64,000 bases of DNA. Source: Bacteroidaceae bacterium. GTDB taxonomy: Bacteria > Bacteroidota > Bacteroidia > Bacteroidales > Bacteroidaceae. The stretch covers positions 8,827 to 72,826 of the forward strand of contig JBJEHD010000077.1 in assembly GCA_051875715.1 (NCBI GenBank), given 5' to 3'. Every line of letters begins with the position of its first letter. Position 1 is the first letter of the stretch. Shown here in pieces: positions 9,313 to 45,671 of this stretch. The notes beneath the pieces were generated by a model that searched no databases, was not told where the DNA came from, and saw only the letters and a program-made list of their open reading frames with translations. A program made the translations under genes and the position numbers.

Positions 9313-10995
9313 ATGAAAAAATACACAATATTCGGAATTGGTTTGCTGGCTGCCTTCTTGAGTGGATGCCAGCAGGACAACGACCTGAAGGACGGCTACG
9401 GCTATTTGCAACTGTCTTCGGTCGAAGTGGACAAGAACATTCAGACCAAGGCGGGTGAGCAACTGGCCTTGGACATCTACGACAGCAGCAACATCCTGCT
9501 GAAACATGCCGACGACTGGACCTCCATGCAGAGCGAAAGCCTGCTTCTGCTGGTCGGCGACTATACGTTGAAGGCCTATTCGGCCACCGGCTCGGCCGAA
9601 GCACAGGGCTTTGATGCCATCCCGTACTACATGGGTGAACAGGTGGTGACGGTGGAGGCCAATGTGGCCAAAACGGCCGAAGTGACCTGCACGTTGGCCC
9701 AGGCCAAGGTGGAGATTTCGTATAGCGACCGTTTCAAGTCGGTGTTCCCCACGTACGCAACGACGGTTTCGAACACGAAGGGCAACATCGAGTTTGCCGC
9801 CGACGAGACGCGTTCGGCCTTTGTCTGCGCAGGCGAAGCCTTGAATGCCACGGTGACGTTTGCCAAGGACGGCGGGGCAACGAAGACGTATTCGCACGTC
9901 ATCGCAGCCACGGCACAGCCCAAGTACCTCTACAAGGTGGCTTATGATATCAACAACGTGCCCGGAACGGGTGAGTTCACGGTGACGGTCAATATCACGG
10001 TCGACCGCTACGAACTCAACGCTACTGTGCCGTTGGAATCGAACATCGACGACAATCTGCAGGCCACGAGCGCCAATGCGTGGGGACAGTTTGCTTACCT
10101 CTACGGCTCGTCGTTGCTGGTGTCGACGTCGGACCCCTACGTGTTCGAGTTCAAGAAGAACGGGGCTGCCGAGTGGACCTCCGTCCCGGCCACGCTTGTC
10201 GATGGCCAGTACACGGCCAAGACCGGCCAGTTGGAGTTTAATACGGCCTACAACTACCGTTTGGTCAATGGCACGAAAGTGAGTGCGACTCAGTCGTTCA
10301 CCACCGAGACGTACGAGGAAATCCCCAACCTGAATTTCGACACGTGGACGAAGAGCGGCAGCAACTGGTATGCCAATCCGGTGGCCAACAACTACGACGA
10401 TGCCCAGGCCTATTGGGCCACGGGTAACGAAGGCGTGACATCGTTCTTGGCCGGTAGCAATGCTCCCATCACCGTGCCGGTGGAGGGTGCGGATGCCTAT
10501 TCGGGCAAGGCCGCAAAAATGTACACTTTGACAGGTGTGACACTGGTCGGTGCGGCAGCCGGCAACCTCTTTGTGGGTCGTTACAAGACCAACATGAGCA
10601 GTCCGGCCAACAGTGTTTCGTTTGGCCGTCCGTACACGGGTGCCCGTCCGGTCAGTCTGTCGGGTTACTACAAGTACACGTCGCAACCCATCAGCCGCGG
10701 ATCATATCCGGGCATGCTGACCAACGACGAGGGACACATCTATATGCAGGTGTGGGACGCCAGCGACAATGTGATTGCCTACGGTGAGAAGGTGATTACG
10801 GAATCGGCCGACACCTATACGCCGTTCACGTTCGATCTCGTCTATTCCGATGAAACGGCCAAACCGGCCAAGATTATGATTCTCTGTACCTCCAGTCATT
10901 ATGGTGGCGAGTTCAGTGGCTCGTCTGTGGTGGGTCAGGTTGGCTCGAACAGTACCCTGTGGGTGGATGAGTTTAGTGTTTCCTACTACAAATAA
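9313..10995 (+). CDS. Lipoprotein with DUF4493-like N-terminal region and a C-terminal PCMD (putative carbohydrate metabolism) domain
   Basis: 560 aa. Lipobox LSGC followed by QQDND. The C-terminal block IPNLNFDTWTK...AYWATGNEGV...GYYKY...TSSHYGG...WVDEFSVSYYK matches my recollection of the PCMD family. Confidence 0.8.
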   Translation: MKKYTIFGIGLLAAFLSGCQQDNDLKDGYGYLQLSSVEVDKNIQTKAGEQLALDIYDSSNILLKHADDWTSMQSESLLLLVGDYTLKAYSATGSAEAQGFDAIPYYMGEQVVTVEANVAKTAEVTCTLAQAKVEISYSDRFKSVFPTYATTVSNTKGNIEFAADETRSAFVCAGEALNATVTFAKDGGATKTYSHVIAATAQPKYLYKVAYDINNVPGTGEFTVTVNITVDRYELNATVPLESNIDDNLQATSANAWGQFAYLYGSSLLVSTSDPYVFEFKKNGAAEWTSVPATLVDGQYTAKTGQLEFNTAYNYRLVNGTKVSATQSFTTETYEEIPNLNFDTWTKSGSNWYANPVANNYDDAQAYWATGNEGVTSFLAGSNAPITVPVEGADAYSGKAAKMYTLTGVTLVGAAAGNLFVGRYKTNMSSPANSVSFGRPYTGARPVSLSGYYKYTSQPISRGSYPGMLTNDEGHIYMQVWDASDNVIAYGEKVITESADTYTPFTFDLVYSDETAKPAKIMILCTSSHYGGEFSGSSVVGQVGSNSTLWVDEFSVSYYK

Positions 10996-17611: not shown

Positions 17612-19519
17612 ATGAAAAAACTAACTTTTGTCTTAATGAGTACGGTCCTCAGCCTTGCGGCTGCGGCACAGACTTCCACGTATGTGGTGGATGGGTCTAA
17701 TACGCCAATTAACTTTGGAAATAATGCATCGGAAAAATCGGGTGATGTGAGTTATAATGGTACTAAGTTGGAATTGCCTTATGGAACTTGGGCTTGGACG
17801 GAAAAGGAAGGATATGCAGTTGTTCCTTTTACAGGAAAACCCGGCATACTAAATTATAAGGCAGCTGTCAACTCGAATCTTCAAACACGTAAGTACTATA
17901 TATATGGAGCCACACAAAGTGGTGAATGGACGCTTCTAAAAGAATCAGGAGAGGGAACCTTTCAAGTGCTAATGTCGAAGAACTATTCTCGTATAAAGAT
18001 ACATATGTATAAAAAAGGTAATGCGTTGAATTGCAGAGTTGAGAATGTGTTTATTACCAAGCCTCTCATCCTCACTCCCTCCAGCACCGTTCTCCCCATG
18101 CCCGTCATCGACGGAGACTATGCCGACCTCTGCACACTGGCCTATTCCGGCTTGAGTGCCGATCTGCAGGTGACGACGCCGGATGGAAATCTGAGTCTGG
18201 ATGGTACTGACGGAACTATTGCAGGCTCCAGTGTTTCCAGTTCGCTGGGCTTTGGCAATGGATTCGCTTTGGTGGGCTCTGCTTCTTCCCAGTCCTCTAT
18301 TTTGGAAAGAACCGCCACCGTCCGCGTCAAACTGCCCGGCATCCCCGCCACGTACATCACCGACGGCGACGAGTTCGACGACAGCCTGATGCCGACGCTG
18401 ACCTATACGGGAAACATCTATTTTGCCGACCCGTCCGTCAGCGACTGCTACGAGACGCTGACCACCTTCCAGTACCAGCCCCGGATGCCGAAGGAGGCCG
18501 CCAACTGGGCCGGCCTGCTGGCCCATAAGACCCGCGTGGTGCTGAACTATCCCGATGCCACCTACGCCACCAACGGTGCACTGAAACTGGCCTTGGCCGG
18601 CAACAAGCGCATCCATACCCTCCGCGTGCCCAACATGCAGAACGTCAACTTCGACACGCTCGACCTCGACATCAACCCCAACTGCATCATCTACGCCGGT
18701 GCGGGCTGCTCGGGAAAGAACGTGGTGGTGGACGGCACGGCGACCGCGTTCTTGCTGACCGACTATAACATGGGCACGAACGTAGAAGAAGCCAGAAACT
18801 ATCCCTTCGTGGTGGAAGAAGCCTTTACGGCCACGCTGGCTCGCTATTCCCGTAAGTGCTATGTGGACGGCGGCTACGAGACCATCATCCTTCCGTTTGC
18901 TCCCACGCGCGTCTACTACCTGACGGAAAGCGAAAACTATAAGGGCTACAAGTTGCAGCAGTTCGCACAAAGCGCGACCGACGAGGTCGTCTTCAACGAT
19001 GCTACGTGGCAGGCCAATACGCCCTACATGATTCGTCCGACCGCTTCGGGCACGCCGAATCAGCAGCACGAATTCCGATTCATTGGCGAGAACGTGCGCG
19101 TGGAGGCGGTGGGTGCCTCCGCGTTGTTCGGCACGGACTTCGTGGGCGGATACAACCTGAGCGAGGCCACCGGCCAGTATTTCCTGAACTCTACGGGTGA
19201 GTATTTCGTGCAATCGAACAAGACAAAGGCCTGGAACACGCCTTTCCGTTGCTACCTGACGTCGGACAGCGGACTCAGCCAGATGCGTGTCCGGGTGGAA
19301 CAGCCCACGGACATCCGTCCGGGCGAGGTGGCCGCGTCCGTGATTCGGGGCGGCAAGGGCAGCATCGAATGCGAGGCCACGGAGGCCGTCGTGCTGCGCG
19401 TGACCGACCTCTCGGGTCGCTTGGTGCGCGAGGCGCGGACCGAAGCCGGACGCACCAGCCTGACGGGCTTCCTCCCCGGCTTCTACCTCGTGAATGGACA
19501 GAAAGTAATCGTACGATGA
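17612..19519 (+). CDS. Secreted protein with a T9SS C-terminal sorting domain; function unknown
   Basis: 635 aa. Signal peptide MKKLTFVLMSTVLSLAAAAQ. The C-terminal ~70 aa (VLRVTDLSGRLVREARTEAGRTSLTGFLPGFYLVNGQKVIVR) fit the type A T9SS CTD pattern. Confidence 0.75.
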   Translation: MKKLTFVLMSTVLSLAAAAQTSTYVVDGSNTPINFGNNASEKSGDVSYNGTKLELPYGTWAWTEKEGYAVVPFTGKPGILNYKAAVNSNLQTRKYYIYGATQSGEWTLLKESGEGTFQVLMSKNYSRIKIHMYKKGNALNCRVENVFITKPLILTPSSTVLPMPVIDGDYADLCTLAYSGLSADLQVTTPDGNLSLDGTDGTIAGSSVSSSLGFGNGFALVGSASSQSSILERTATVRVKLPGIPATYITDGDEFDDSLMPTLTYTGNIYFADPSVSDCYETLTTFQYQPRMPKEAANWAGLLAHKTRVVLNYPDATYATNGALKLALAGNKRIHTLRVPNMQNVNFDTLDLDINPNCIIYAGAGCSGKNVVVDGTATAFLLTDYNMGTNVEEARNYPFVVEEAFTATLARYSRKCYVDGGYETIILPFAPTRVYYLTESENYKGYKLQQFAQSATDEVVFNDATWQANTPYMIRPTASGTPNQQHEFRFIGENVRVEAVGASALFGTDFVGGYNLSEATGQYFLNSTGEYFVQSNKTKAWNTPFRCYLTSDSGLSQMRVRVEQPTDIRPGEVAASVIRGGKGSIECEATEAVVLRVTDLSGRLVREARTEAGRTSLTGFLPGFYLVNGQKVIVR

Positions 19520-19728
19520 TGAATCAACTTAATAACCAGCAAACAATGGAAAAGAAAACATACGAAAAGCCTCGCATCGAGGTACTGGAGTTCATCTCCG
19601 AAGGTGTCATGGCCGGAACCATCGTCCCGATTCCGCCCATCACGGAGATTCCCGGGGAGGAGCAGGAACCGGAGTTCAATCCCCGTGCGCCGCGCCGCAA
19701 TCCGCGCGACTTCTGGACCGGACGCTGA
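19516..19728 (+). CDS. Small ORF (70 aa; 60 aa if started at the ATG at 19546), translationally coupled to the T9SS cargo gene
   Basis: ATGA overlap with the upstream stop (19516-19519). The product is MMNQLNNQQTMEKKTYEKPRIEVLEFISEGVMAGTIVPIPPITEIPGEEQEPEFNPRAPRRNPRDFWTGR. No family was recognised with certainty. Confidence 0.4.
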   Translation: MMNQLNNQQTMEKKTYEKPRIEVLEFISEGVMAGTIVPIPPITEIPGEEQEPEFNPRAPRRNPRDFWTGR

Positions 19729-19820: not shown

Positions 19821-19908
19821 GTTTAAACGCCGTTTAAACGTCGTTGCAACGTCGTTGCAATGCTGTTGCAATGCTGTTGCAATGCTGTTGCAATGGCGTT
19901 GCAACACT
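19821..19908. repeat. Tandem array of 8 x 11 bp, each unit carrying an 8-bp palindrome (GTTTAAAC x2, GTTGCAAC/GTTGCAAT x6)
   Basis: The units start at 19821, 19832, 19843, 19854, 19865, 19876, 19887 and 19898. Three consecutive units are identical (gttgcaatgct). Confidence 0.95.
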
Positions 19909-20232
19909 GCATGGCACTCGATTCTTTTTTCGACCACCCCAATACCCCGCCTGCCAGGCGGGGCTTGCCTCCCCAAACCCCTCCGTGGAGGGGCTTAAAT
20001 GAGGCCGATGGCCTCATAGTCTAAGGTAAGGCCAACCGAGCCTGTGCCCCTTCGGGGTTGGTCTTGGTTTCTTACGGGAGGGAACGGCCTCCCGGTTGTT
20101 TGTCCGCATCTGGCGATGCGGGGTGTCCTCGAGGTTTCTGAAACCTTAGGTGCAAAAACGAAGCAGCCCCGACGGCTCATGGCGCAACAACGCTCATGCC
20201 CCGTCGAGGCTGCTTGTAGAGGCCGGTTCAAA
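19909..20232. other. Hairpin-dense GC-rich non-coding segment (candidate structured RNA or stacked terminators)
   Basis: At least seven distinct short GC stems are present: ccccgcc/ggcgggg, cccctcc/ggagggg, gaggcc/ggcctc, ccaacc..cccc/gggg..ggttgg, gggagg/cctccc, ccgcatc/gatgcgg and gcagcc.cgacgg/ccgtcg.ggctgc. There is no credible ORF. Confidence 0.3.
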
Positions 20233-20315
20233 CGCGTGTACACGTGAAGGCAAACGCGTGTACACGCGAAGTCACATGCGTGTACACGCGAAGGCCGATG
20301 CGTGTACAGACGTAT
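20233..20315. repeat. Tandem array of 4 x 22 bp with core palindrome GTGTACAC (extended CGCGTGTACACGCG)
   Basis: The cores lie at 20236-43, 20258-65, 20280-87 and 20302-09 (the last is degenerate, GTGTACAG). Spacing is exactly 22 bp. The array abuts the stop codon of the FKBP gene at 20317. Confidence 0.95.
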
Positions 20316-20316
20316 T

Positions 20317-20892
20317 TTATTCGCAGTCGCCGCATCCGCCGCCGCAACTGCCACCGCAGTCGCCGCCGCAGCTGCCGCATCCACCGCCGCATCCGCCGCT
20401 CATGGCCTTCACCATGTCTTCAATCTCTTTGTTCGTGGCCGGACGTACGTCCACCACTGTGCCGGAGAAGTGGAGGTCCTTGCCGGCGTAGGGATGGTTG
20501 AGGTCGATGGTCACCGTGTCCGGCGTCAGTTTGCTGATGAGGCCGTTGTGGCGGTGTCCCTCGCTGTCGAACAAGGGGATGACGGCGCCTTCGTAGACGT
20601 AGCGTTCGTCGTTGGCGTCGTCGCCGAAGAACTCTTTGCGGTTCAGTTCGTGTACACCCTCGGGGAAATAGTCGCCGTAGGCGTCGTCGCAGGGGATGAC
20701 GAACTCGAAGCGGTCGCCCTTGTTGCGCGACACCAGTTCCTGCTCGAAGCGGGGCAAGGTGAATTCCAGTCCCGAGATGAAGGCGAAAGGATGTTCTTCG
20801 GTGGTTTCTTCTCGTAAAATCAGTTCACCGTTTTCTGCTTTCGTGTGCAGTTGGTAAGCCACGGTGATGTACAGGTTAGTGCTGTTTTCCAT
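20317..20892 (-). CDS. slyD: SlyD-like FKBP-type peptidyl-prolyl isomerase with a Cys/Gly-rich C-terminal tail
   Basis: 191 aa. FKBP fold with an insert-in-flap region (DLNHPYAGKDLHFSGTVVDVR) and the tail SGGCGGGCGSCGGDCGGSCGGGCGDCE. Confidence 0.85.
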   Translation of the reverse strand: MENSTNLYITVAYQLHTKAENGELILREETTEEHPFAFISGLEFTLPRFEQELVSRNKGDRFEFVIPCDDAYGDYFPEGVHELNRKEFFGDDANDERYVYEGAVIPLFDSEGHRHNGLISKLTPDTVTIDLNHPYAGKDLHFSGTVVDVRPATNKEIEDMVKAMSGGCGGGCGSCGGDCGGSCGGGCGDCE

Positions 20893-31568: not shown

Positions 31569-32126
31569 ATGAAACCATTCGTATTTATCATCGCATGTGT
31601 CGCCCTGCTGCCGTCTTGTCGAACCGGGAAGGCAGTGGGCGACCTGCCTTTTTCTACACAGATGACCGCTCCCTCTTTTGTGCCCGGCCCGAAGGCCATT
31701 GTCTACAAGACCAGGCACGACTATCGCGACCGCGTGCCGGTGTTGATGAACGAAGCCCGCACGGAGATTCTTTCCTATCCGGCTCCGGCTGATGTCTATT
31801 ACCGAGGCCGGCTGGCCTATCCCACACCCCTTGTCGATGACTACTTGCTCGACAACCGGGGTATCGGTGCCAGCGTGGCCTTTCTGGACTATACCTACGA
31901 GGCATACAGCCGGTTGGAGAAAACCCCTTCGCGAGCCGAACTGATGCAGCATCTTTTGGATACGCATCCTTTGCTGGAGGCCTGGAATTGCGGCCTGCGT
32001 ACCGACTATCAAGACGAGGTAGCCGAACTGAATGCCCGCATCGCCGAAGGTTTCCGTGGTTGCCGCTCGCTGCTGGGCGATTCGTTGGTGAAATTGCGGA
32101 CGGCACCGAAGCAGACAGGAGATTAA
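31569..32126 (+). CDS. Hypothetical lipoprotein
   Basis: 185 aa. Lipobox LLPSC. It starts 12 nt after the peptidase stop. No family was recognised. Confidence 0.6.
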   Translation: MKPFVFIIACVALLPSCRTGKAVGDLPFSTQMTAPSFVPGPKAIVYKTRHDYRDRVPVLMNEARTEILSYPAPADVYYRGRLAYPTPLVDDYLLDNRGIGASVAFLDYTYEAYSRLEKTPSRAELMQHLLDTHPLLEAWNCGLRTDYQDEVAELNARIAEGFRGCRSLLGDSLVKLRTAPKQTGD

Positions 32127-32402
32127 CCGCAGAAGGTCTGGAATACGATTGAAGGCGGTGTGTCATCATGGCCCGTCTGCGGCGTTGCTATCGGCATTCG
32201 GTCTTGGTCGTGTACGCCAACACTTCCTTCGACCTCAGCCTCAGCGCCTTGCATCTCGACTATTCTGACGCACCTTTGAGGCTGTGCCAAAATTGGAAGT
32301 TTTGACACAGCCTCTTCTGCATCCGGTGGCTTGCGTTTCACGCAGAGGTACGGACACCTGGTTCTTTGACCCCACGATGAATGCCGTATTCACATCACTC
32401 AA

Positions 32403-32446
32403 CGCGTGTACACACAAACCGCTTCGCGTGTACACACGTAAACAAG
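32403..32446. repeat. 2 x 22-bp array with core GTGTACAC
   Basis: The cores at 32406-13 and 32428-35 are exactly 22 bp apart. The reverse complement of copy 2 (gtgtgtacacgcgaagc) matches the unit of the 20233 array, so it is the same family in inverted orientation. Confidence 0.85.
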
Positions 32447-32533
32447 ATGGTGTGCAGGGAGGCAAAGTGCGATTTGGAAGGCCTTTTCCGGTCCAGCCGG
32501 AGTAGGGCCGGTCTCTTCAGAAACGATTGAGGC

Positions 32534-33829
32534 TTAGTCCCTCCTCCTCATGGCATAGCCGTAGCCGACGATGACAACGAAGCAGATGAGCGGAAGTACG
32601 AACGACACGTTTACGGCTGGCATCCCGAACAATTCCTTGCAGTCGATGATGGAGGCCTGTAGCGGGGGAAGCACGGAACCTCCGAGGATGGCCATGATGA
32701 GGCCCGCTGCACCAAATTTGGCATCGTCGCCCAGTCCGTGCAGGGCAATGCCGTAGATGGTGGGAAACATGAGCGACATACAGGCCGACACGCCTACCAG
32801 GCAATAGAGGCCATACGTGTTTTGGCAGAGAATCACTCCGCAGGTGAGCACCACTGCCGCGCAGGCCAGAGCCATCAGCAACCTGCCGGGGCGGACATAG
32901 CGCAGCATGAAGGTGCAGACGAAGCGGCTGGCGCAGAAGATAATCATTGCAACGATGTTGTATTGCTGCGAGAGCACCTCGGCCGCCTGCTCCTCCATGC
33001 CCTGACTCATGAAGAGGCGCGTGCCATACTGGATGATGAAGGTCCAGCACATGATTTGCGCACCCACGTAAAAGAACTGGGCCACCACTCCGTATCGGTA
33101 TCGCCTCAGGCTGAAGATGCGCTTCAGCGTAGGCAGGAAATCAATGGAATGGCTCTTGTCGGCATTACGCGGCATGGGCGTCAGCCGGATTACGGCCAGC
33201 ATCAGCAGAATCACCACCCCGATCACCAGATAGGGGGCAATCAGCACGGAGAGGTCGGCTTCCTTGACGGCTTCAAACTCGGCGGATGCGAGTTGGGCGC
33301 GCTGCACGGTGTCCAACGGGTTCAGCCGGTTTTGGATGAAGTTCATGGCTACATACATGCCCAGCAGCGATCCGATGGGGTTGAAGGCCTGGGCCAGGTT
33401 GAGCCGTCGCGTGGCGCTCTCCTCGTCGCCCATGGAGAGGATGTAGGGGTTGCAGCTGGTCTCCAGGAAAGAGAGTCCGCAAGTCATGACGAAGTAGGCC
33501 AGCAGGAACGGGTAGTACTCTCCCGTTTGCTTGGCCGGGAGGAACGCGAGGGCCCCCAAGGCATAGAGGCCTAAGCCCATGAGTACGCCAGCCTTGTAGC
33601 TGAAGCGTCGGATGAACATGGCGGCCGGAAAGGCCATGGCGAAATAGCCTCCATAGAAGGCCACTTGCACCAGTGCGCCATCGGTCACACTCATGCGGAA
33701 GATTTTGGAGAACGCCTTCACCATGGGGTTGGTGATGTCGTTGGCAAACCCCCATAGTGCAAAGCAGGAGGTGATAAGGATAAAAGGTATTACATAGTTG
33801 CCCTTTCGGCTCAGTGTGTTTTTGTTCAT
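32534..33829 (-). CDS. fucP: L-fucose:H+ symporter permease (MFS)
   Basis: 431 aa from the ATG at 33829 (MNKNTLSRKGNYVIPFILITSCFALWGFANDITN). It is colinear with my recollection of E. coli FucP. The longer ORF in the track is an upstream read-through. Confidence 0.9.
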   Translation of the reverse strand: MNKNTLSRKGNYVIPFILITSCFALWGFANDITNPMVKAFSKIFRMSVTDGALVQVAFYGGYFAMAFPAAMFIRRFSYKAGVLMGLGLYALGALAFLPAKQTGEYYPFLLAYFVMTCGLSFLETSCNPYILSMGDEESATRRLNLAQAFNPIGSLLGMYVAMNFIQNRLNPLDTVQRAQLASAEFEAVKEADLSVLIAPYLVIGVVILLMLAVIRLTPMPRNADKSHSIDFLPTLKRIFSLRRYRYGVVAQFFYVGAQIMCWTFIIQYGTRLFMSQGMEEQAAEVLSQQYNIVAMIIFCASRFVCTFMLRYVRPGRLLMALACAAVVLTCGVILCQNTYGLYCLVGVSACMSLMFPTIYGIALHGLGDDAKFGAAGLIMAILGGSVLPPLQASIIDCKELFGMPAVNVSFVLPLICFVVIVGYGYAMRRRD

Positions 33830-33852
33830 GGTATGCAAGTAAGGTGGATGAA

Positions 33853-35223
33853 TCAGAATGATTGTTGGTTCAGGGGGTGTGCCTGCTTTTGGATCAGGAT
33901 GTTGCCGATGGCAGTGGCTTCGACGGGGCCGGCTTCGACGGGGAGTCCGGTTGCCTCGGCGGTGAGCCGGTTGAGGAAATGGTTTTGTGCCCCTCCGCCA
34001 ATGATGCGCAACCGCTCGACTGGTGTCGGCAGGAGTGCGTTGAGCCCTTCGATGGCCCGACGATAACGGTCGGCCAGCGAGCGGAGCACGCACCTTACCA
34101 GTTCGCCCCGTGTGTGCGGCACAGGCTGTCCGCTGGTGCGGCAGCAGTTGGCAATGGCATCCGACATGGAGGCCGGGCTGACCAGGCGAGGGTCGTCCAC
34201 GTCGATCAGTGCGTCGAAGTCCGCCTTCTCGGCCTCGTCGATCAGCCGATCGTATGCCGTGTCCAGTCCCTGTTCTTTCCAGACTGCCATCAGCCGTTGC
34301 AGCATCCACAGCCCGGTGATGTTTTGCAGGAAGCAGATTTTGCCGTCGGCTCCTCCCTCGTTGGTAAATCCGCTCCGACGGGCCTCCTCGCTGAGGATGG
34401 GTCGTTCGGTTCGCACGCCCAGCAACGACCAGGTGCCAGAACTGAGAAAGGCGGTACATCCTCCATCGGCAGCGGGTGGGATGGCACAGACGGCACTGGC
34501 GGTGTCGTGCGAGGCGACGGCTACCACCGGCACCTCGTAGTCGATGCCGAGTTCCGCCATCAGGGCGGGTGTCAGTACGCCGCGATGGCTTCCCGGCAGG
34601 ACAATCTCGCCAAAAATCTGTGTCGGAAGTCCCAACTCTTCTATCAGCGGGTAGTTCCACTGTCCTGTGCGGATATCCATCAGTTCGGAGGTGGAGGCAA
34701 TGGTGTATTCATTGTTGGCCACCCCCGTCAGGAAATAGCTGAACAGGTCGGGCATGAAAAGCAGGCGGTCGGCCGCCTCCAGTTGCGGGTCGTTCTCCAG
34801 TTTTATGGAATACAGCTGAAAGAGTGTGTTGATGGGCATCACCTGTGTGCCGCACGCGGCGTAGTGAGCCTGTGCGTCGTGTGATGCGAAGAAACGCTCG
34901 GGTAGGCCGTCGGTGCGGTGGTCGCGGTAACAGACCGGGTTGCCCAGCAACCGTCCGTTGCGGTCAATCAGCCCGAAGTCCACGCCCCATGTGTCGATGC
35001 CGATGCTTCGGATTCGGTACCCCTTTTCCGCCGCCTGCCGGATGCCCCGTTTCATGTCCTCGAACAAGGAGAGGAAATCCCAGTAGATGCGACCGCCCAG
35101 TTCCACCTGGCGGTTGGGAAACCGGCTGACCGTGTCCAACTGCAGTTCGCCGGCTTCCTCGAAGCCGGCAATGACTCTGCCACTGCCGCCTCCGAGGTCG
35201 ATAGCCAAATATGCTTCTCTCAT
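33853..35223 (-). CDS. fucK: FGGY-family sugar kinase (rhamnulokinase-like), in the fuculokinase position of the operon
   Basis: 456 aa from the ATG at 35223 (MREAYLAIDLGGGSGRVIAG...IGIDTWGVDFGLID). ATGA overlap with the aldolase stop. Confidence 0.85.
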   Translation of the reverse strand: MREAYLAIDLGGGSGRVIAGFEEAGELQLDTVSRFPNRQVELGGRIYWDFLSLFEDMKRGIRQAAEKGYRIRSIGIDTWGVDFGLIDRNGRLLGNPVCYRDHRTDGLPERFFASHDAQAHYAACGTQVMPINTLFQLYSIKLENDPQLEAADRLLFMPDLFSYFLTGVANNEYTIASTSELMDIRTGQWNYPLIEELGLPTQIFGEIVLPGSHRGVLTPALMAELGIDYEVPVVAVASHDTASAVCAIPPAADGGCTAFLSSGTWSLLGVRTERPILSEEARRSGFTNEGGADGKICFLQNITGLWMLQRLMAVWKEQGLDTAYDRLIDEAEKADFDALIDVDDPRLVSPASMSDAIANCCRTSGQPVPHTRGELVRCVLRSLADRYRRAIEGLNALLPTPVERLRIIGGGAQNHFLNRLTAEATGLPVEAGPVEATAIGNILIQKQAHPLNQQSF

Positions 35224-35858
35224 TTCGTCTTCTTGCCTAAGATGTACGTTTCCAGGTCGTCTATCTCTGCTTCGGACAGGGTGTTGAAACGCCCTCCCGT
35301 CAGGATGGCGATGCGGCAGGCCATTTCGAAGAACATGGCTCGTTCGAAAGCCTGGTCGAAGTCCTTCCCGCAGACCACTTGCCCGTGTTTGCGTAGCAGA
35401 GCGGAGTTGTGGTGGGTGAGTGCGTCCACCACGGCGGCTGCCAGTTCCGGCGAGCCGGGGCGGTAGTACGGAATCACCGGGATGTCGGACCCTACATGGC
35501 AGGGCACTTCGGCCGTGACGTTGAGGTCGGCCGGAATCTCTTTCATGCAGGCTAAGGCGGTGGCATAGGGCGATTGGAAGTGAAGCACCACGTTCACATC
35601 CGGTCGGGCACGCAGTATGCCGAGGTGGAATCCATGCTCCATCGAGGGCTTGACCCCGTTGAGTACCTCGCCCGTCTCTATCCGGCAGCGCGACACCTTT
35701 TCGCGTGTCAGGCTGGGTACCCACGACCCGGTGCCGGACAGCAGTGCCTCGTCGCCGATGCGCCAGGAGAGGTTGCCGCTGCTGCATACGGTCAGACCGG
35801 CCTCGCCTACGCGGTGGGCCTCGGCGAGGAATTTCTCTATGTGTTGGTCGGTAATCAT
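35220..35858 (-). CDS. fucA: Class II aldolase (L-fuculose-phosphate aldolase type)
   Basis: 212 aa from the ATG at 35858. Motifs SSGNLSWR and the metal-binding His cluster region (EHGFHLGI...VVLHFQSPY). Confidence 0.85.
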   Translation of the reverse strand: MITDQHIEKFLAEAHRVGEAGLTVCSSGNLSWRIGDEALLSGTGSWVPSLTREKVSRCRIETGEVLNGVKPSMEHGFHLGILRARPDVNVVLHFQSPYATALACMKEIPADLNVTAEVPCHVGSDIPVIPYYRPGSPELAAAVVDALTHHNSALLRKHGQVVCGKDFDQAFERAMFFEMACRIAILTGGRFNTLSEAEIDDLETYILGKKTK

Positions 35859-35892
35859 GTCGTTGGTTTTCTGAGGTTGTACGTAGGATGGT

Positions 35893-37665
35893 TTACTTGT
35901 AGATGGGACCGTAGTTTTGGCAGGCACGATAGTCGGCTCCTTCCTTGTCCATCCCGAACGCATTCCATGCGGCAGGACGGAAGATGCGGTCGTCGTCCAC
36001 ATTGTGCATGCAGACGGGGATGCGTAACATCGAGGCCAGCGTGATGAGGTCCTGGCCGATGTGTCCGTAGCTGATGGCACCGTGGTTGGCTCCCCAGTTG
36101 TTCATGACGGAGTAGACATCCTTGAAGGCCGGTTTGTCGCACAATCGGGGGACGAACCACGTGGTGGGCCATGTGCGGTCGGTGCGTTCGTTCAGCAGGC
36201 GATGCACTTCCGGGTCGATTTCGACGGTCCATCCTTCGGCAATCTGCAGCACGGGGCCCAGGCCTTTCACCAGGTTCAGCCGGCTCATGGTTACTGGCAT
36301 ACCACCCTTCGAGAGGAAGTTGGACGAGAAACCGCCGCCCCGGAAATAGTCTCGGTTGGCCGGATACCAGGTGGTGGCCTCCAAGCATTTCTCGACCTCC
36401 TCTTCGGTGATTTCCCAGAACGGCTTCATGGCTGGCTGGCCTTCGGCATTCGTCTGCTGTCCGGTGCCGTCGAGGGTGGTGGCACCCGAGTTGATCAGGT
36501 GGATGATTCCGTTCTGGGCCAGTCCGGTCAGTTCCTTGCCGGTGACGCGCTTCACGGCTTCGGGGCTCCAGTAGGTACGCACGTCGGAGAAGATTTGTGC
36601 GCGGTTGCTGAGCAGATGGCCGAAGAGCATGGCCACTCCGTTGCAGGCATCGTTCTCGGTGGCCACGACAAAGGCTTCGCGGATGCCGTTCCAGTCGAAC
36701 GAGGTGTTGAGCAATGCCTCCGAGTAGTCTCCGTTGGGATAAAAGTCAGTCCACTGCCGTTGCCCCTGGAATCCGGCTGCGATGGCATTGTGTCCCAGTG
36801 CCTCCTCCTTGAAGCCCATCTCGCGCAGTTTCGGATTGCCCTTCATCAGGTCGCGCATGATGAGGGTCATTTTCACAATGAACTCCCAGTCGGCCTCCTT
36901 CTGCTCGCGGGTCTTGATTTTCGCGGGTTGGTTGAAGTCTTGCCCTTCGTGCGGCTTGCAGTATTTCTCTGTCCAGGCCATCGCCTTGGCAAACTCTTCC
37001 TTGTCATAGATGCCCTCGGTCATGCGGCGGATGATTTCGGTCAAGTCGACCGATTCGCAGCGCATCCCCAGGTATTCCTGAAAGAAGTCCGGATTGACAA
37101 TCGATCCGGCGATACCCATAGATACGCTACCCATGGAGAGGTACGACTTGCCGCGCATGGTGGCCACGGCCTGGGCGGCACGGGCAAAGCGGAGAATCTT
37201 CTCGGCCACGTCGGCCGGGATGCTGTTGTCGTCGAGGTCCTGCACGTCGCGGCCGTAGATGCCGAACGCAGGCAGCCCCTTTTGCGCATGGCCGGCCAAT
37301 ACGGCAGCCAGGTAGACCGCACCCGGACGCTCGGTGCCATTGAATCCCCATACGGCTTTCGGATAGTAGGGATTCATGTCCATGGTCTCGGCACCGTAGC
37401 ACCAGCAAGAGGTGACGGTGATGGTGGCCCCTACGCCTTCGCGCTCAAACTTCTCGGCGCAAGCGGCACTTTCGGCCACCCGTCCGATGGTCGAGTCGGC
37501 AATGACGCATTCCACGGGACTGCCATCGCCGTTCTTCACGTTGGTGGTGATTAACTCGGCCACTGCTTTGGCCAGATTCATGGTCTTCTCTTCCAGGCTT
37601 TCGCGCACACCGCCCTGCCGACCATCGATGGTGGGGCGGATTCCGATTTTAGGATAACGGTTCAT
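35893..37665 (-). CDS. fucI: L-fucose isomerase
   Basis: 590 aa from the ATG at 37665. The N-terminus [35 protein letters not shown] closely parallels E. coli FucI as I recall it. Confidence 0.95.
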
Positions 37666-37749
37666 TGCTTTTTGTAGATGAATTGAATGAAGATAATTGG
37701 TTAACATTGTTTTCTTTCTCTCTTTCTCTCTTGCCTGTCTCGGTGTCGC

Positions 37750-38745
37750 TCACAACGAACCGCGCAGGCGGACGATGGTGGGGAGGTAGTCCCTCGGAAC
37801 CTCATCGTGGGTAATGAAGCGGGCGGCCCTACGGCCCATCTCGGCCCAGTCGATTGTCATGGCCGTGATGCCTTGGCCAATCACCTCGTAGGCAGGGGTG
37901 TCGTTGTAGGCAATCAGGCCATAGTCTGCGCCACAGTGCAAGCCGCTCCGTCTACCTGCCTTGATGAGGCTGACCACGTCGATTTGGCGAATCACCACGT
38001 AGAGCGTTTTCTCCCTCGCCTGCTCAATGGTTTCTTCCGTGCTCACTTCGGCGGACAATCCGTGTGCGGAAGCGTAACGCAGCAGCGCCTCGGCCGACAC
38101 GCGAGGATGGTGCGAGTGTGCTGGCAGCTGAAAGATGATCCGACGGTAGGAAAGTATCCGCTCGGTCAGTGTCTCCAATGCTTCGTAGAATGATTCGTCG
38201 AAGTTCTGGCAGAGGTAAGCATACGGCTGTTTGTCGAAACGGCCGAAGTCCAGCAACAGCAGACGCGAGGCTGGCAAGCGGCTCACCAAAGGCGAAAGCC
38301 GCTCGTTGTCGAAGTTCATGACGACGTAATAGTCGTAGCGTCCGATGGCTGCGCTCAGCACCTGGCTGAAGATTTCCTCATTATACTGATGAAACCAAAG
38401 GTCCACCTTGTAGTGGGCCGATGGCAAGTGTTGTACAAAACTGTTGTACAGCGTGTCCTTGAAGGGGGAGTATTCGTCCAGCAACAGGAAGATGGTCCGC
38501 TGTGTGGCGTTGACGTAATATCCCTTGCCCGGTGCGGAGGCAATCAACTTCCGGCTGCGCAGTTCGGCAAACGCCTTGAAAACGGTGTCGCGCGACACGC
38601 CGTACCTTCGGCTGAGGCAGTTGATGGAGGGTAAGGGAGTGCCAACGGCATACTTCTTTTTCCGTATTTCCTCTGCCAGGGTATCTGCCAGCGAGCGCAC
38701 CTTGCTTACACTGCTTCCTAACTCGGTCTGTTCTGTTCTTTTCAT
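37750..38745 (-). CDS. fucR: GntR-family regulator with a sugar-binding domain (FucR type)
   Basis: 331 aa. Winged-helix N-terminus (LPSINCLSRRYGVSRDTVFKAFAELRSRKLI). It is the first gene of a fucR-I-A-K-P order like that known from Bacteroides thetaiotaomicron. Confidence 0.8.
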   Translation of the reverse strand: MKRTEQTELGSSVSKVRSLADTLAEEIRKKKYAVGTPLPSINCLSRRYGVSRDTVFKAFAELRSRKLIASAPGKGYYVNATQRTIFLLLDEYSPFKDTLYNSFVQHLPSAHYKVDLWFHQYNEEIFSQVLSAAIGRYDYYVVMNFDNERLSPLVSRLPASRLLLLDFGRFDKQPYAYLCQNFDESFYEALETLTERILSYRRIIFQLPAHSHHPRVSAEALLRYASAHGLSAEVSTEETIEQAREKTLYVVIRQIDVVSLIKAGRRSGLHCGADYGLIAYNDTPAYEVIGQGITAMTIDWAEMGRRAARFITHDEVPRDYLPTIVRLRGSL

Positions 38746-38985
38746 TATAAATAAGGAGTTTATCTATGCTGAACTGTTCTGAACGCAAAGGACGGTATTC
38801 TTGTGCTTATAGGCAAGCGGTCGGTATATGTTTCATAGCAGGTTTTGCGGGATGACCTCCCGTTTGCTGCTTCGATGGGCAGGATTTCTCCTGCAAGGCG
38901 ATTCCTCGCGAGGACTGTCGCGCGTTCATGGGAATGGGCCGTGCGGAAGTGTCCTGCTGCGTCACTGACAATACTCCACTTCGTA

Positions 38986-39073
38986 TGTGAGTACTCGCGT
39001 GGCGGTCGGCGAGTACTCTCGTGGCTACTTGTGAGTACTCACGCGACGGCTTGAGGGTACTCGTCCTGTTTTC
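38986..39073. repeat. Tandem array of 4 x 22 bp with core palindrome GAGTACTC
   Basis: The cores lie at 38989-96, 39011-18, 39033-40 and 39055-62 (the last is GGGTACTC). Spacing is exactly 22 bp. Copy 3 forms the perfect 12-bp palindrome GTGAGTACTCAC. Confidence 0.95.
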
Positions 39074-39077
39074 GCAT

Positions 39078-39129
39078 GTAGGTATAAAACAACAAGGCGA
39101 TGTCCCGTTTGGTGGTGGGACATCGCCTT
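39078..39129 (-). terminator. Rho-independent terminator after the EEP nuclease gene
   Basis: 13-bp arms aaggcgatgtccc (39094-39106) and gggacatcgcctt (39117-39129). On the minus strand it is followed by GTTGTTTTAT. Confidence 0.7.
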
Positions 39130-39158
39130 GTGGATTAAATGGAATGGAGGAGTAGGGC

Positions 39159-40165: not shown

Positions 40166-40169
<4 letters not shown>
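39159..40169 (-). CDS. Secreted endonuclease/exonuclease/phosphatase (EEP) family nuclease
   Basis: 336 aa. Signal peptide (FLGVAVFLPAQ) and EEP catalytic motifs GFYNLENLFD, ILGDFND and YSDHFPV. Confidence 0.85.
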
Positions 40170-41653
<1,484 letters not shown>

Positions 41654-44201: not shown

Positions 44202-45671
44202 TTAGAGTTTGTCACCGGTCAGGCTAACGTCGTCGATGCGGAATCCGGCCGTGTTGACGGTCGATTCGCTCTTGAACGTGATGGTGGTGAATCCGGGAGT
44301 GAGTCCGGTCAGTTCGACCGTTTGGTACGTATTGGTGGTGGCGATGGCTTTGGCCGGAACGGTCAGTTCCGTATCGCCGGCAAACACCTTGATGTGGCTT
44401 TGGTCTCCATTGGCGTTGGCCGTGATTTTATAGGTCAGTTTCAGGTTGGTGCATCCGGTCGTCACCAGGCCGCCTATCTGCAGCTGGCTATCCTTGTTGG
44501 CGGCGAACCATACGTGCGGATTGAGCGTGGAGGTCTGACGCACAGAGGCGTTGCTGTAAGTGCCGGTCATGCCCGGGTCGGAGAAGGTGAGGTTCTGGTT
44601 GTCCCAGCCGGTGTAGGCATTCACGCCCGGCCAATAGCCGTCGGCACCTTTTGCCACCGTTTCGCCGAAGGTCTCGGTGAAGAAGGTCGGTTCGCCGGAC
44701 GGAGTCGGGTCTGGATTCGGATCGGGGTCGGGAGTCGGGTCTACACCACCGCCGCCTTCCTCGTCGAAGTCGACGTCGATGTTGCCGCCGTTCTGCTCCG
44801 TCCACGGCGTGATGCTGCTGTTCAGCACGACGACGCTGTTGTTGCCCTCCGTGTGGTTCAGTTTCACGGTGTAGTTCTGTTGTGCGCCACTGTTCAGGCT
44901 GAGGCTGGCGATTTTATGCTCAAACGTACCTGCGCCGGGGAGGTCGAAGGTGATGACCACGTCTTTCACGTCCTGCTCGGGCAAGAGAATGGCTTCGGCC
45001 ACTGCTCCGCCTCCGGCCATGTGCGACACCTTCGTTTCGATGGACTCTTTCGAGTCGTCGGCCAGGGTGAGCGTACCGTCGGGGAGGAACAGGGAGGCCC
45101 GTGTCTTGAGTCCGCTGATGCTGACGGCCAGGCCGGCCAGTTCTTCATTGCCGTCGATGCTCTGGATGGTGAACATCATTCGGCTCAAACGGTGTTTGTA
45201 CACCAGCGTCGTGTTCGACGAGGCATCCACGCCTTTGGCGTTGTTCGAATAGAGGAGGTCGATTTTCCCTTGCAGGCTCTGGTCGGTCAGGTCCACCGTG
45301 TAGGTGTAGTTGGACAAGCCTTCCTTGTAGGGATAGTAGGACACGAAGTCTACCGTCGTCCCTTCGGGGAAGTAGATGATTTCGTTCGAGTTGAACCCTT
45401 GGAAATTGCCGTCGCCCGCCGAGGTGACGTATTTCTTGTTCTCCGCGCCATTCAAGATGGTTGTTGCGGACAATTGGGCGTCATGTTTGACCATGTATAC
45501 GCCTACCTGGTCGTTCACTTCCCACGTGGAGCCGGCCACTTTCGTGCTTGCTCCGTACACAAAAGAGGAGAAACGCACCTCTTGTGTGTTCAATTTGACT
45601 GTTTCATCATCGTTGCAGGCTGTCAAGGCCAATGCCGACAACAGGGCGATGCTTGCTTTTCTTAGTTTCAT
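44202..45671 (-). CDS. Fimbrillin-like (Mfa-like) lipoprotein, Pro/Thr/Asp linker, shared ~155-aa C-terminal module
   Basis: 489 aa. Lipobox LTAC followed by NDDE. N-terminal pattern VRFSSFVYGASTKVAGSTWEVNDQVGVYMV and linker VDPTPDPDPNPDPTPSGEP. The C-terminus is near-identical to that of the 40166 gene (GYWPGVNAYTGWDNQNLTFSDPGMTGTYSNASVRQTSTL). Confidence 0.75.
   Translation of the reverse strand: MKLRKASIALLSALALTACNDDETVKLNTQEVRFSSFVYGASTKVAGSTWEVNDQVGVYMVKHDAQLSATTILNGAENKKYVTSAGDGNFQGFNSNEIIYFPEGTTVDFVSYYPYKEGLSNYTYTVDLTDQSLQGKIDLLYSNNAKGVDASSNTTLVYKHRLSRMMFTIQSIDGNEELAGLAVSISGLKTRASLFLPDGTLTLADDSKESIETKVSHMAGGGAVAEAILLPEQDVKDVVITFDLPGAGTFEHKIASLSLNSGAQQNYTVKLNHTEGNNSVVVLNSSITPWTEQNGGNIDVDFDEEGGGGVDPTPDPDPNPDPTPSGEPTFFTETFGETVAKGADGYWPGVNAYTGWDNQNLTFSDPGMTGTYSNASVRQTSTLNPHVWFAANKDSQLQIGGLVTTGCTNLKLTYKITANANGDQSHIKVFAGDTELTVPAKAIATTNTYQTVELTGLTPGFTTITFKSESTVNTAGFRIDDVSLTGDKL

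Follow-up and report, generated by a model that had tools for sequence, protein, structure and literature searches.

Phased 22-bp palindrome arrays at junctions of strain-specific DNA in a Bacteroidaceae bacterium

We analysed a 64-kb stretch of a Bacteroidaceae genome (hereafter the window; GenBank assembly GCA_051875715.1, contig JBJEHD010000077.1), in which short palindromes recur in intergenic arrays at a spacing of exactly 22 or 11 bp. These arrays are young, unstable and portable modules, which are bounded by their outer palindromic cores and mark junctions of strain-specific DNA. We call them so because they gain and lose units, their cores drift, they are found in differing contexts and they are absent in the next relatives. 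Their most informative property is that they lie at exact breakpoints of strain-specific DNA, a property missing from the first-pass annotation of this sequence. We tentatively read the arrays as lineage-specific, dispersed minisatellites of palindromic units, comparable to repetitive extragenic palindromes (REPs) and bacterial interspersed mosaic elements (BIMEs) and also to the minisatellite cores of MITEs (miniature inverted-repeat transposable elements); we put the probability of this reading at about 45%.

Palindrome arrays in the window

Four arrays are found in the 64 kb, every one of them intergenic:

20229..20316, unstranded: array A, four 22-bp units, in each of which the 14-bp palindrome CGCGTGTACACGCG or a close variant is joined to an 8-bp spacer
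32399..32442, unstranded: array B, two 22-bp units with GTGTACAC cores at 32406 and 32428
38982..39069, unstranded: array C, four 22-bp units with GAGTACTC-type cores
19821..19905, unstranded: 11-bp array, GTTTAAAC twice and then GTTGCAAC/T six times, each unit an 8-bp palindrome plus 3 nt

Tandem Repeats Finder places array A at 20229-20308 (period 22, 3.6 copies, 87% matches) and array C at 38986-39062 (period 22, 3.5 copies), and the periods of the window arrays are exactly 22 or 11 with zero indels. The cores of array A are GTGTACAC at 20236, 20258 and 20280 and GTGTACAG at 20302; those of array C are GAGTACTC at 38989, 39011 and 39033 and GGGTACTC at 39055. Arrays A and C had each been described as having four identical cores, but the fourth core of each has one mismatch. 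Arrays A and B have identical units, including the asymmetric flanks AACGCGTGTACAC and GTGTACACGCGAAG (in array B one unit has its flank inverted), which argues for their common descent. In the consensus proposed earlier for all units, the GCG-W-R-G tail is only approximate. Beyond the units, loci A, B and C have no sequence in common, and their comparison within the window revealed neither MITE-like flanks nor terminal inverted repeats (TIRs).

An ATAT run aside, identical 8-bp palindromes recurring within 66 bp are found in the 64 kb only at these arrays. There are nine pairs of identical palindromes at most 66 bp apart (versus a mean of 0.35 in 300 Markov shuffles), six pairs at exactly 11 or 22 bp (versus 0.013) and two equally spaced palindrome triples (versus 0). 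The arrays are real and non-random: the sequence itself, Tandem Repeats Finder and the shuffles all confirm the exact 22-bp phasing at three intergenic loci, and the 11-bp array, that the first-pass annotation had reported. They also show both defining features of minisatellites, or variable-number tandem repeats (VNTRs), namely head-to-tail units of ~10-100 bp and a unit number that differs by strain.

Junctions of strain-specific DNA

Array C lies between the terminator hairpin of an exo/endonuclease-phosphatase (EEP) gene and a fucose operon, ~240 bp upstream of the GntR-type fucR gene that heads the operon:

32080..38987, minus strand: strain-specific 6.9-kb segment with the fucR-fucI-kinase-fucP operon and array B
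39096..39133, minus strand: terminator-like hairpin of the EEP gene, directly upstream of array C on the minus strand (context only; conserved in L117)

We compared this locus with contigs of strains 88-97% identical, which were reached via cluster members of the SlyD, EEP and FucR proteins. Array C is found in four configurations. In the window, the EEP terminator is followed by array C and then by the fucose operon. The whole 6.9-kb segment, fucose operon and array B included, is missing in L315-L319 (strains ~90% identical), where the EEP terminator and array C are followed by 131 bp and then the next gene; in L320 and L117, array C is followed by an unrelated gene instead. The other side of the array is replaced in L322: here a MerR-EamA-small open reading frame (ORF) arrangement precedes array C, which is followed by the fucose operon. 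All four units of array C are kept in L117 and in L315-L320; L322 keeps the array on the fucR side.

The breakpoints coincide with the edges of the array. Four sequences diverge directly after the last array C core GAGTACTC, L322 diverges directly before the first core, and the left junction of the 6.9-kb segment is the last core of array C. Array B is carried inside the segment, ~330 bp from its end. L321, from the L322 sample, has a 22-bp array of another kind after the EEP terminator (10503-10551), with the spacer of array A (GCATCGGCCTTCAC) but the core GAGCGCAC in place of GTGTACAC. This GAGCGCAC core on the array A spacer, together with the coexistence of GAGCGCTC and GTGTACAC in the composite arrays of Colivivens (see below), suggests a wider core pattern GWGYRCWC.

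Copy-number change and drift within the species

Array A has four units in the window, L306, L309 and L314, five in L308 and six in L313, always in exact 22-bp steps; the 11-bp array has eight units in the window, six in L306 and five in L309, in exact 11-bp steps. These length variants are found in strains 89-95% identical. Slippage, which had been set aside earlier in favour of a dedicated mechanism, is thus directly seen in both arrays. The cores of array A drift from GTGTACAC to GTATACAC, and its edge unit decays to CCATACGT. A homologous 11-bp GTTGCAACGCC array is found in a different context in L322, and contig L001, from the same strain as the window, ends inside array A.

The gap that contains array A and the 11-bp array has two further features:

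19883..20139, unstranded: 257-bp block of serial GC-rich hairpins (at least six consecutive stem-loops), one breakpoint of which is the edge of the 11-bp array
20163..20213, plus strand: long hairpin immediately before array A (context only; conserved in all relatives)

The window has the 257-bp block, L306 and L309 lack it, and L313 and L314 cover it in part, as both of these contigs end inside it. This block could be a small mobile element or a REP-like hairpin cluster of its own.

Outside the species, the closest sampled neighbours have only 70-77% protein identity; in these next relatives the arrays are lacking at both loci, and only terminators are found there.

Genomic setting of the arrays

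Array A starts in a convergent gap between genes, 7 nt past a slyD-like stop codon, and the same gap contains the 11-bp array and the run of GC-rich hairpins; array B sits in a convergent gap after fucP. The genes neighbouring the window arrays are slyD, a gltD-like gene, a gene for a protein with a type IX secretion system (T9SS) tail and the fucose genes. The first-pass annotation placed all three loci at 3' ends of operons. The window loci do follow gene ends, but locus C, although it follows a terminator, is also upstream of the fucR operon and so is not simply a 3' end. The window (57% G+C) has no GC-skew switch, and hence no sign of a replication origin or terminus.

We rejected array C as an operator of FucR: regions upstream of Bacteroides fucR genes have no GAGTACTC arrays, and array C is kept in strains without the operon. 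In all the fucR orthologues examined, a common box (TTTG…TCAGAACAGTTCAGCA) directly precedes the start codon; it is probably the true promoter or operator of fucR. In a Bacteroides species (L325 2640-2900, L326), an 85-bp unit is repeated in tandem 2-3 times upstream of fucR.

Related arrays in other genomes

In a scan of one genome per species, across 185,579 species, we looked for GWGTACWC cores recurring three times at a 22-bp spacing. At least 112 loci were matched, versus ~0.14 expected by chance (an expectation obtained by arithmetic); such phased arrays are thus no one-off but are strongly over-represented, with a concentration in Bacteroidota. Among the matches listed, to which the counts in this and the following paragraph refer, 21 of the 32 genomes are from Bacteroidota (Bacteroidaceae, Porphyromonas, Prevotella, Parabacteroides, Mediterranea, Sphingobacterium and Saprospiraceae). 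Carriers available in culture are Sphingobacterium sp. SGG-5, Bacteroides luti DSM 26991 and Mediterranea massiliensis. The matched loci are heterogeneous and include a MITE, composite arrays, iteron-like repeats and a site in a prophage gene.

About 40 arrays in ~20 other genomes have genome-specific extended palindromes (e.g. AAAGGTGTACACCTTT, AATTGAGTACTCAATT and TGCGGTGTACACCGCA), which recur at several loci per genome. Most arrays of the wider family are intergenic (30 out of 33). Their gene contexts (eight convergent, eight divergent and 14 tandem) show no gene-end preference, and the rule that arrays lie at 3' ends of operons fails here. No gene family is enriched by the arrays: 67 neighbours have 123 Pfam families, with no transposase or regulator signal.

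Composite symmetric arrays are found in Colivivens caballi and two Sphingobacterium species. They consist of three flank units of the GAGCGCTC or GCCTAAGC type, three or four GTAC units and three inverted flank units, and hold a single 22-bp register across ~200 bp. Three half-site variants (AAAATGAG, AAATTGAG and AAAACGAG) combine freely in them. In orthologous Sphingobacterium arrays, the central units are 91-94% identical, as compared with 77-82% for the whole loci, and one orthologous pair differs by exactly one 22-bp unit.

Two gene contexts recur. GTGTACAC arrays with differing arms are found 150-250 bp upstream of thrS in two Bacteroidales genera (L008 6790-6885 and L066 3509-3582), and two Bacteroidaceae records ~96% identical to each other (L096 6745-6796 and L107 2672-2723) have GTGTACAC arrays upstream of a gltD-like gene. 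Array A is also near a gltD-like gene, which may be a coincidence or a positional preference.

A variable-gap scan of metagenomes, which allowed periods of 16-28 bp, found the (22,22) period at 34 out of 120 loci, versus at most 10 at any other single period. Unselected minisatellites in the Bacteroidota loci that we fetched, non-palindromic ones included, also peak at 21-23 bp. The exact A/B unit pair had 0 matches in Joint Genome Institute (JGI) metagenomes, where this lineage is poorly sampled. The window arrays are members of a broad Bacteroidota class of palindrome arrays in a 22-bp register. We found no published description of such arrays in the open-access literature, which yielded only papers on SlmA and general papers on REPs. 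The statement in the first-pass annotation that no described element matches the arrays stands in this sense, but analogues do exist in REPs/BIMEs, the minisatellite of the BrickBuilt MITE and plasmid iterons.

MITE, plasmid and prophage examples

At least 63 arrays (L010-L112) belong to a Porphyromonas MITE of ~350 bp with TIRs GGGCYGACGCATGA and imperfect ~9-bp target duplications, found in two uncultured metagenome-assembled genomes (MAGs; NZ_CAJPPN… and NZ_CAJZFJ…) in at least 42 and at least 21 copies, and also at many metagenome loci (L187-L305). In its centre, GTGTACAC and GTATAC alternate every 11 bp.

A Prevotella-type 'viral' contig of 136-177 kb (L131 4649-5087 and 5395-5555; L177; L113) has 20 + 7 copies of the 22-bp unit TGGATTCCGTGTACACCTGAAA. 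The repeats and an AT-rich stretch adjoin a Rep3 initiator gene, and a gene for an IS200-like Y1 transposase is wedged between. Given this gene context (Rep3 initiator and AT-rich stretch), the units are probably the iteron origin of a plasmid or phage-plasmid. In prophages of the Bacillus cereus group, three or four GGAGTACTCC cores are spaced at exactly 22 bp inside the small-terminase gene terS (L118-L185 from IMG/VR, and L006, L025, L053 and L104); this one locus dominates the scan of viral contigs, and its gene context suggests a likely pac site. One Colivivens array is upstream of a ParA-like gene. Neither Rep3 nor a Y1 transposase was found by tblastn in the window or at the chromosomal array loci.

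Folding and RNA-level analysis

Array A is predicted to fold at -49.8 kcal/mol as one single strand (z = -6.3) and at -46 kcal/mol as the other (z = -5.7), a single strand of array B forms a predicted 17-bp hairpin (-25.8 kcal/mol), and the 11-bp array folds at -46 kcal/mol; z-scores of the predicted inter-unit hairpins range from -4.8 to -6.3. Array A contains two weak matches to a terminator consensus, and separate hairpins precede arrays A and C. We ruled out a known RNA family: Rfam gave no match at gathering score in the window or in 17 related loci, and RNAalifold found no covariation for hairpins in the composite arrays. Mismatches in the composite arrays show no wobble bias to one strand. 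The free combination of half-sites and the lack of covariation fit recognition of DNA half-sites better than a selected RNA hairpin. Z-DNA was likewise rejected as a common property: the 14-mer of array A is an alternating pyrimidine-purine sequence, but array C and the 11-bp units are not.

Comparison with known repeat systems

REPs are palindromes that recur between genes, and BIMEs are clusters of them at regular spacing (PMC2817692, PMC3733652). The arrays resemble them in being short, extragenic and palindromic units that are species-specific, present in several copies (four arrays in the 64 kb) and clustered at a fixed spacing, and also in their copy-number variation and their link to rearrangement and insertion sites. 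However, the window units are shorter (8-16-bp perfect palindromes in 22 bp) and are arranged head-to-tail, not alternating. REP palindromes carry a GTAG or CGTC tag at one end (PMC3733652), whereas the 22-bp units have neither tag (CGTC is found only in two units of the 11-bp array). Further differences are the phylum, here Bacteroidota, and the lack of a REP-associated tyrosine transposase (RAYT, a Y1 transposase) by tblastn in the window or at the chromosomal loci.

BrickBuilt is a MITE of Porphyromonas gingivalis with a strictly intergenic, tandem minisatellite of ~22-23 nt, the copy number of which varies by strain and which breaks assemblies (PMC4596501). Its unit is the 23-nt AGAYCATARTATCCTCTCRTRTG, with leader and tail segments and IS5-like TIRs, and is not called palindromic in that study (PMC4596501). 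The likeness lies in the order Bacteroidales, in the intergenic location and in the architecture of TIRs around a central 22-bp array, which is related to that of the element in the Porphyromonas MAGs. Unlike BrickBuilt, the window arrays have no TIRs and no leader or tail segments common to the loci, whereas TIRs are present in the Porphyromonas MAG element. Identity with BrickBuilt was rejected, as AGAYCATARTATCCTCTCRTRTG is unrelated to the window units.

Plasmid and phage sites come close in spacing. R6K and pPS10 have 22-bp iterons, and the tandem ~22-bp register of three to seven or more units is common to iterons and the arrays (the Prevotella example contains GTGTACAC). But iterons are directional and adjoin a rep gene and an AT-rich region, whereas the window arrays consist of perfect palindromes and have housekeeping genes around them; at the window arrays, tblastn and the neighbouring genes gave no initiator gene and AT-rich unwinding region of the kind expected at a Rep3 iteron origin. 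The iterons of the lambda origin lie inside gene O and have dyad symmetry. Phage pac and ori sites are similar in having three or four palindromes phased at about two helical turns (as GGAGTACTCC of Bacillus inside the small-terminase gene), but they are embedded in a coding sequence of a mobile element, with one such site per element.

The exact 12-bp Escherichia coli SlmA site GTGAGTACTCAC (PMC3020112) is found in the third unit of array C, but SlmA sites are single and dispersed in gamma-proteobacteria, and the match is probably a coincidence of a short palindrome. CRISPR arrays, which have repeats of 24-48 bp, unique spacers of similar size and usually cas genes, were rejected for these loci, where repeats are 8-14 bp, spacers are 8 bp and Rfam gives no CRISPR match at the gathering score. 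Integron attC sites were rejected also: GCCTAAC/GTTAGGC-like words, as read by eye, are in the opposite order to attC in Sphingobacterium and are lacking in the window units.

Other features of the window

The slyD-like gene (20317-20892) encodes an FKBP isomerase with a Cys/Gly-rich tail, GGCGGGCGSCGGDCGGSCGGGCGDCE, which is coded by an imperfect 12/21/33-bp repeat (20322-20399, minus strand). A member of the SlyD cluster has 187 aa versus 191 aa here, and the length of the tail may vary. A small ORF (19524-19728, plus strand; ~60-65 aa) that contains MEKKTYEKPRIEVLEFISEGV follows the gene for the T9SS-tailed protein (17612-19519); relatives have it annotated as a gene of 61 aa (L306 10906-11091), with no Pfam hit on record, and it may be a small secreted or precursor peptide. 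The minus-strand gene at 40166-41653, which is lipoprotein-like, has a long Gly-Ser-Asp linker built from 12/18/30/48-bp tandem repeats (40648-40838), and a paralogous segment is found at ~44218-44687 (~78% identical).

Discussion

Reading the arrays as dispersed minisatellites of palindromic units suggests a mechanism for their behaviour. Since every unit is a palindrome, neighbouring units could pair on single-stranded DNA and form long hairpins or cruciforms. Such hairpins on the lagging-strand template would lead to replication slippage and a changed number of units, whereas breakage, recombination or template switching at the base of the stem would place junctions at the outer cores. Array copies at different loci would provide portable homology for rearrangement.

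Several observations weigh against this reading. Transposition of the window arrays is unproven, as there are no TIRs or common flanks beyond the units, and neither the window nor the immediate surroundings of the arrays yielded a binding protein, transposase or recombinase. Between the window and L117, cores and spacers are substituted equally often (~9% each), which gives no hint of purifying selection on the cores in this species. On its right-hand side, the fucose segment is joined inside a gene and not at an array, and the junctions compared are three or four, all in one species. The preference for 22 bp is weaker than first apparent, in that 27 of the 34 (22,22) metagenome loci are the Porphyromonas MITE, and loci with other periods are mostly ordinary minisatellites, whose identical whole units contain GTGTACAC.

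An alternative is neutral minisatellites, in which the unit arose once and was copied by slippage and recombination without any factor, and in which the common 22-bp period reflects shared ancestry and a tendency of Bacteroidota to 21-23-bp minisatellites. The VNTR behaviour, the degenerate edge units and the cores that are no better conserved than spacers between strains are all consistent with it, as are the ordinary GTGTACAC minisatellites at many periods and the non-palindromic 21-23-bp minisatellites that are common in the same Bacteroidota loci and in BrickBuilt (PMC4596501). We nevertheless consider it quite unlikely, because three observations would be left unexplained: unrelated cores (of the GTGTACAC, GAGTACTC, GAGCGCTC and GCCTAAGC types) in one register within composite arrays across distant classes of the phylum, conservation of the central palindromes between species above the level of the flanks, and junctions exactly at core boundaries. 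The strict 11/22-bp register across unit types and the palindromes conserved over spacers (in Sphingobacterium and Colivivens) point to a dimeric sequence-specific DNA-binding protein every two helical turns; by analogy with iterons and pac sites, possible candidates for it are a transposase, a recombinase and a nucleoid protein. We infer such a protein; a dedicated factor as proposed in the first-pass annotation was not found in the window or beside the arrays, and the ideas of restriction decoys and of terminators raised there received no positive support.

The arrays might instead be host operators or architectural sites, at which a dimeric transcription factor or nucleoid-associated protein binds cooperatively on one face of the DNA every two turns and serves to regulate genes, to block transcription like a road barrier or to insulate topological domains; copy-number change and breakpoints would then be side effects. 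This is unlikely in our view. In its favour, loci of the same genome have constant palindromes but varying spacers, orthologous arrays exceed their flanks in conservation, half-sites assort independently as half-site recognition would have it, one array C unit (GTGAGTACTCAC) equals the E. coli SlmA binding site (PMC3020112), and arrays lie upstream of orthologous genes of different genera, thrS in L008/L066 and gltD in L096/L107 (the latter two ~96% identical to each other). Against it, the neighbours show no enrichment of a functional theme or of regulator genes, array C has no conserved counterpart upstream of Bacteroides fucR, and the GTAC, GCGC, TGCA and TTAA core types would require several proteins. 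In the window's species, the cores also acquire mutations, the number of units differs by strain, and the nearest other lineage lacks the arrays. A role in RNA, in which the hairpins terminate transcription bidirectionally or shield mRNA from 3' exonucleases (as proposed for REPs), is improbable. The lack of covariation, the independent half-sites, the mismatches without strand wobble bias and the lack of an Rfam match all speak against it, and canonical terminator hairpins already precede arrays A and C; although all three window loci follow gene ends, both strands fold strongly, some AT-rich arrays end in a T-run and array A has two terminator-like matches, the wider family shows no 3'-end preference. 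It is very improbable that the arrays are relics or functional copies of the binding arrays of mobile elements (Rep3 iterons, partition centromeres or pac sites) that are now chromosomal. The 22-bp phased arrays beside the Rep3 initiator of the Prevotella-type contig (20 + 7 units and an AT-rich stretch), those inside terS of Bacillus prophages and the Colivivens copy upstream of a ParA-like gene would suggest such an origin, but the window arrays have housekeeping neighbours with no rep, par, terminase, integrase or transposase gene nearby, and many copies per genome lie in ordinary intergenic regions.

A bolder version of the minisatellite reading is a phylum-wide repeat system, in which three to 10 palindromes in a strict 22-bp register are bound by a dedicated dimeric protein (perhaps a recombinase or transposase) and serve as joints for the insertion, loss and exchange of cassettes. 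We regard this as unlikely. If true, it would be a functional counterpart of the REP/RAYT system or of integron attC sites, with the fucose operon as a cassette.

The arrays have practical consequences, in that short-read assemblies break at them, as in contigs L001, L321 and others, which end inside arrays, and in that they are ready-made VNTR markers for strain typing. They also mark the exact points at which accessory operons, here for fucose utilisation, are gained and lost. The two-turn register, the symmetric composite architecture and the conservation above the level of the flanks point to a DNA-binding factor. If the class is as it appears, Bacteroidota, including major gut genera, would have a REP/BIME-like repeat family of their own.

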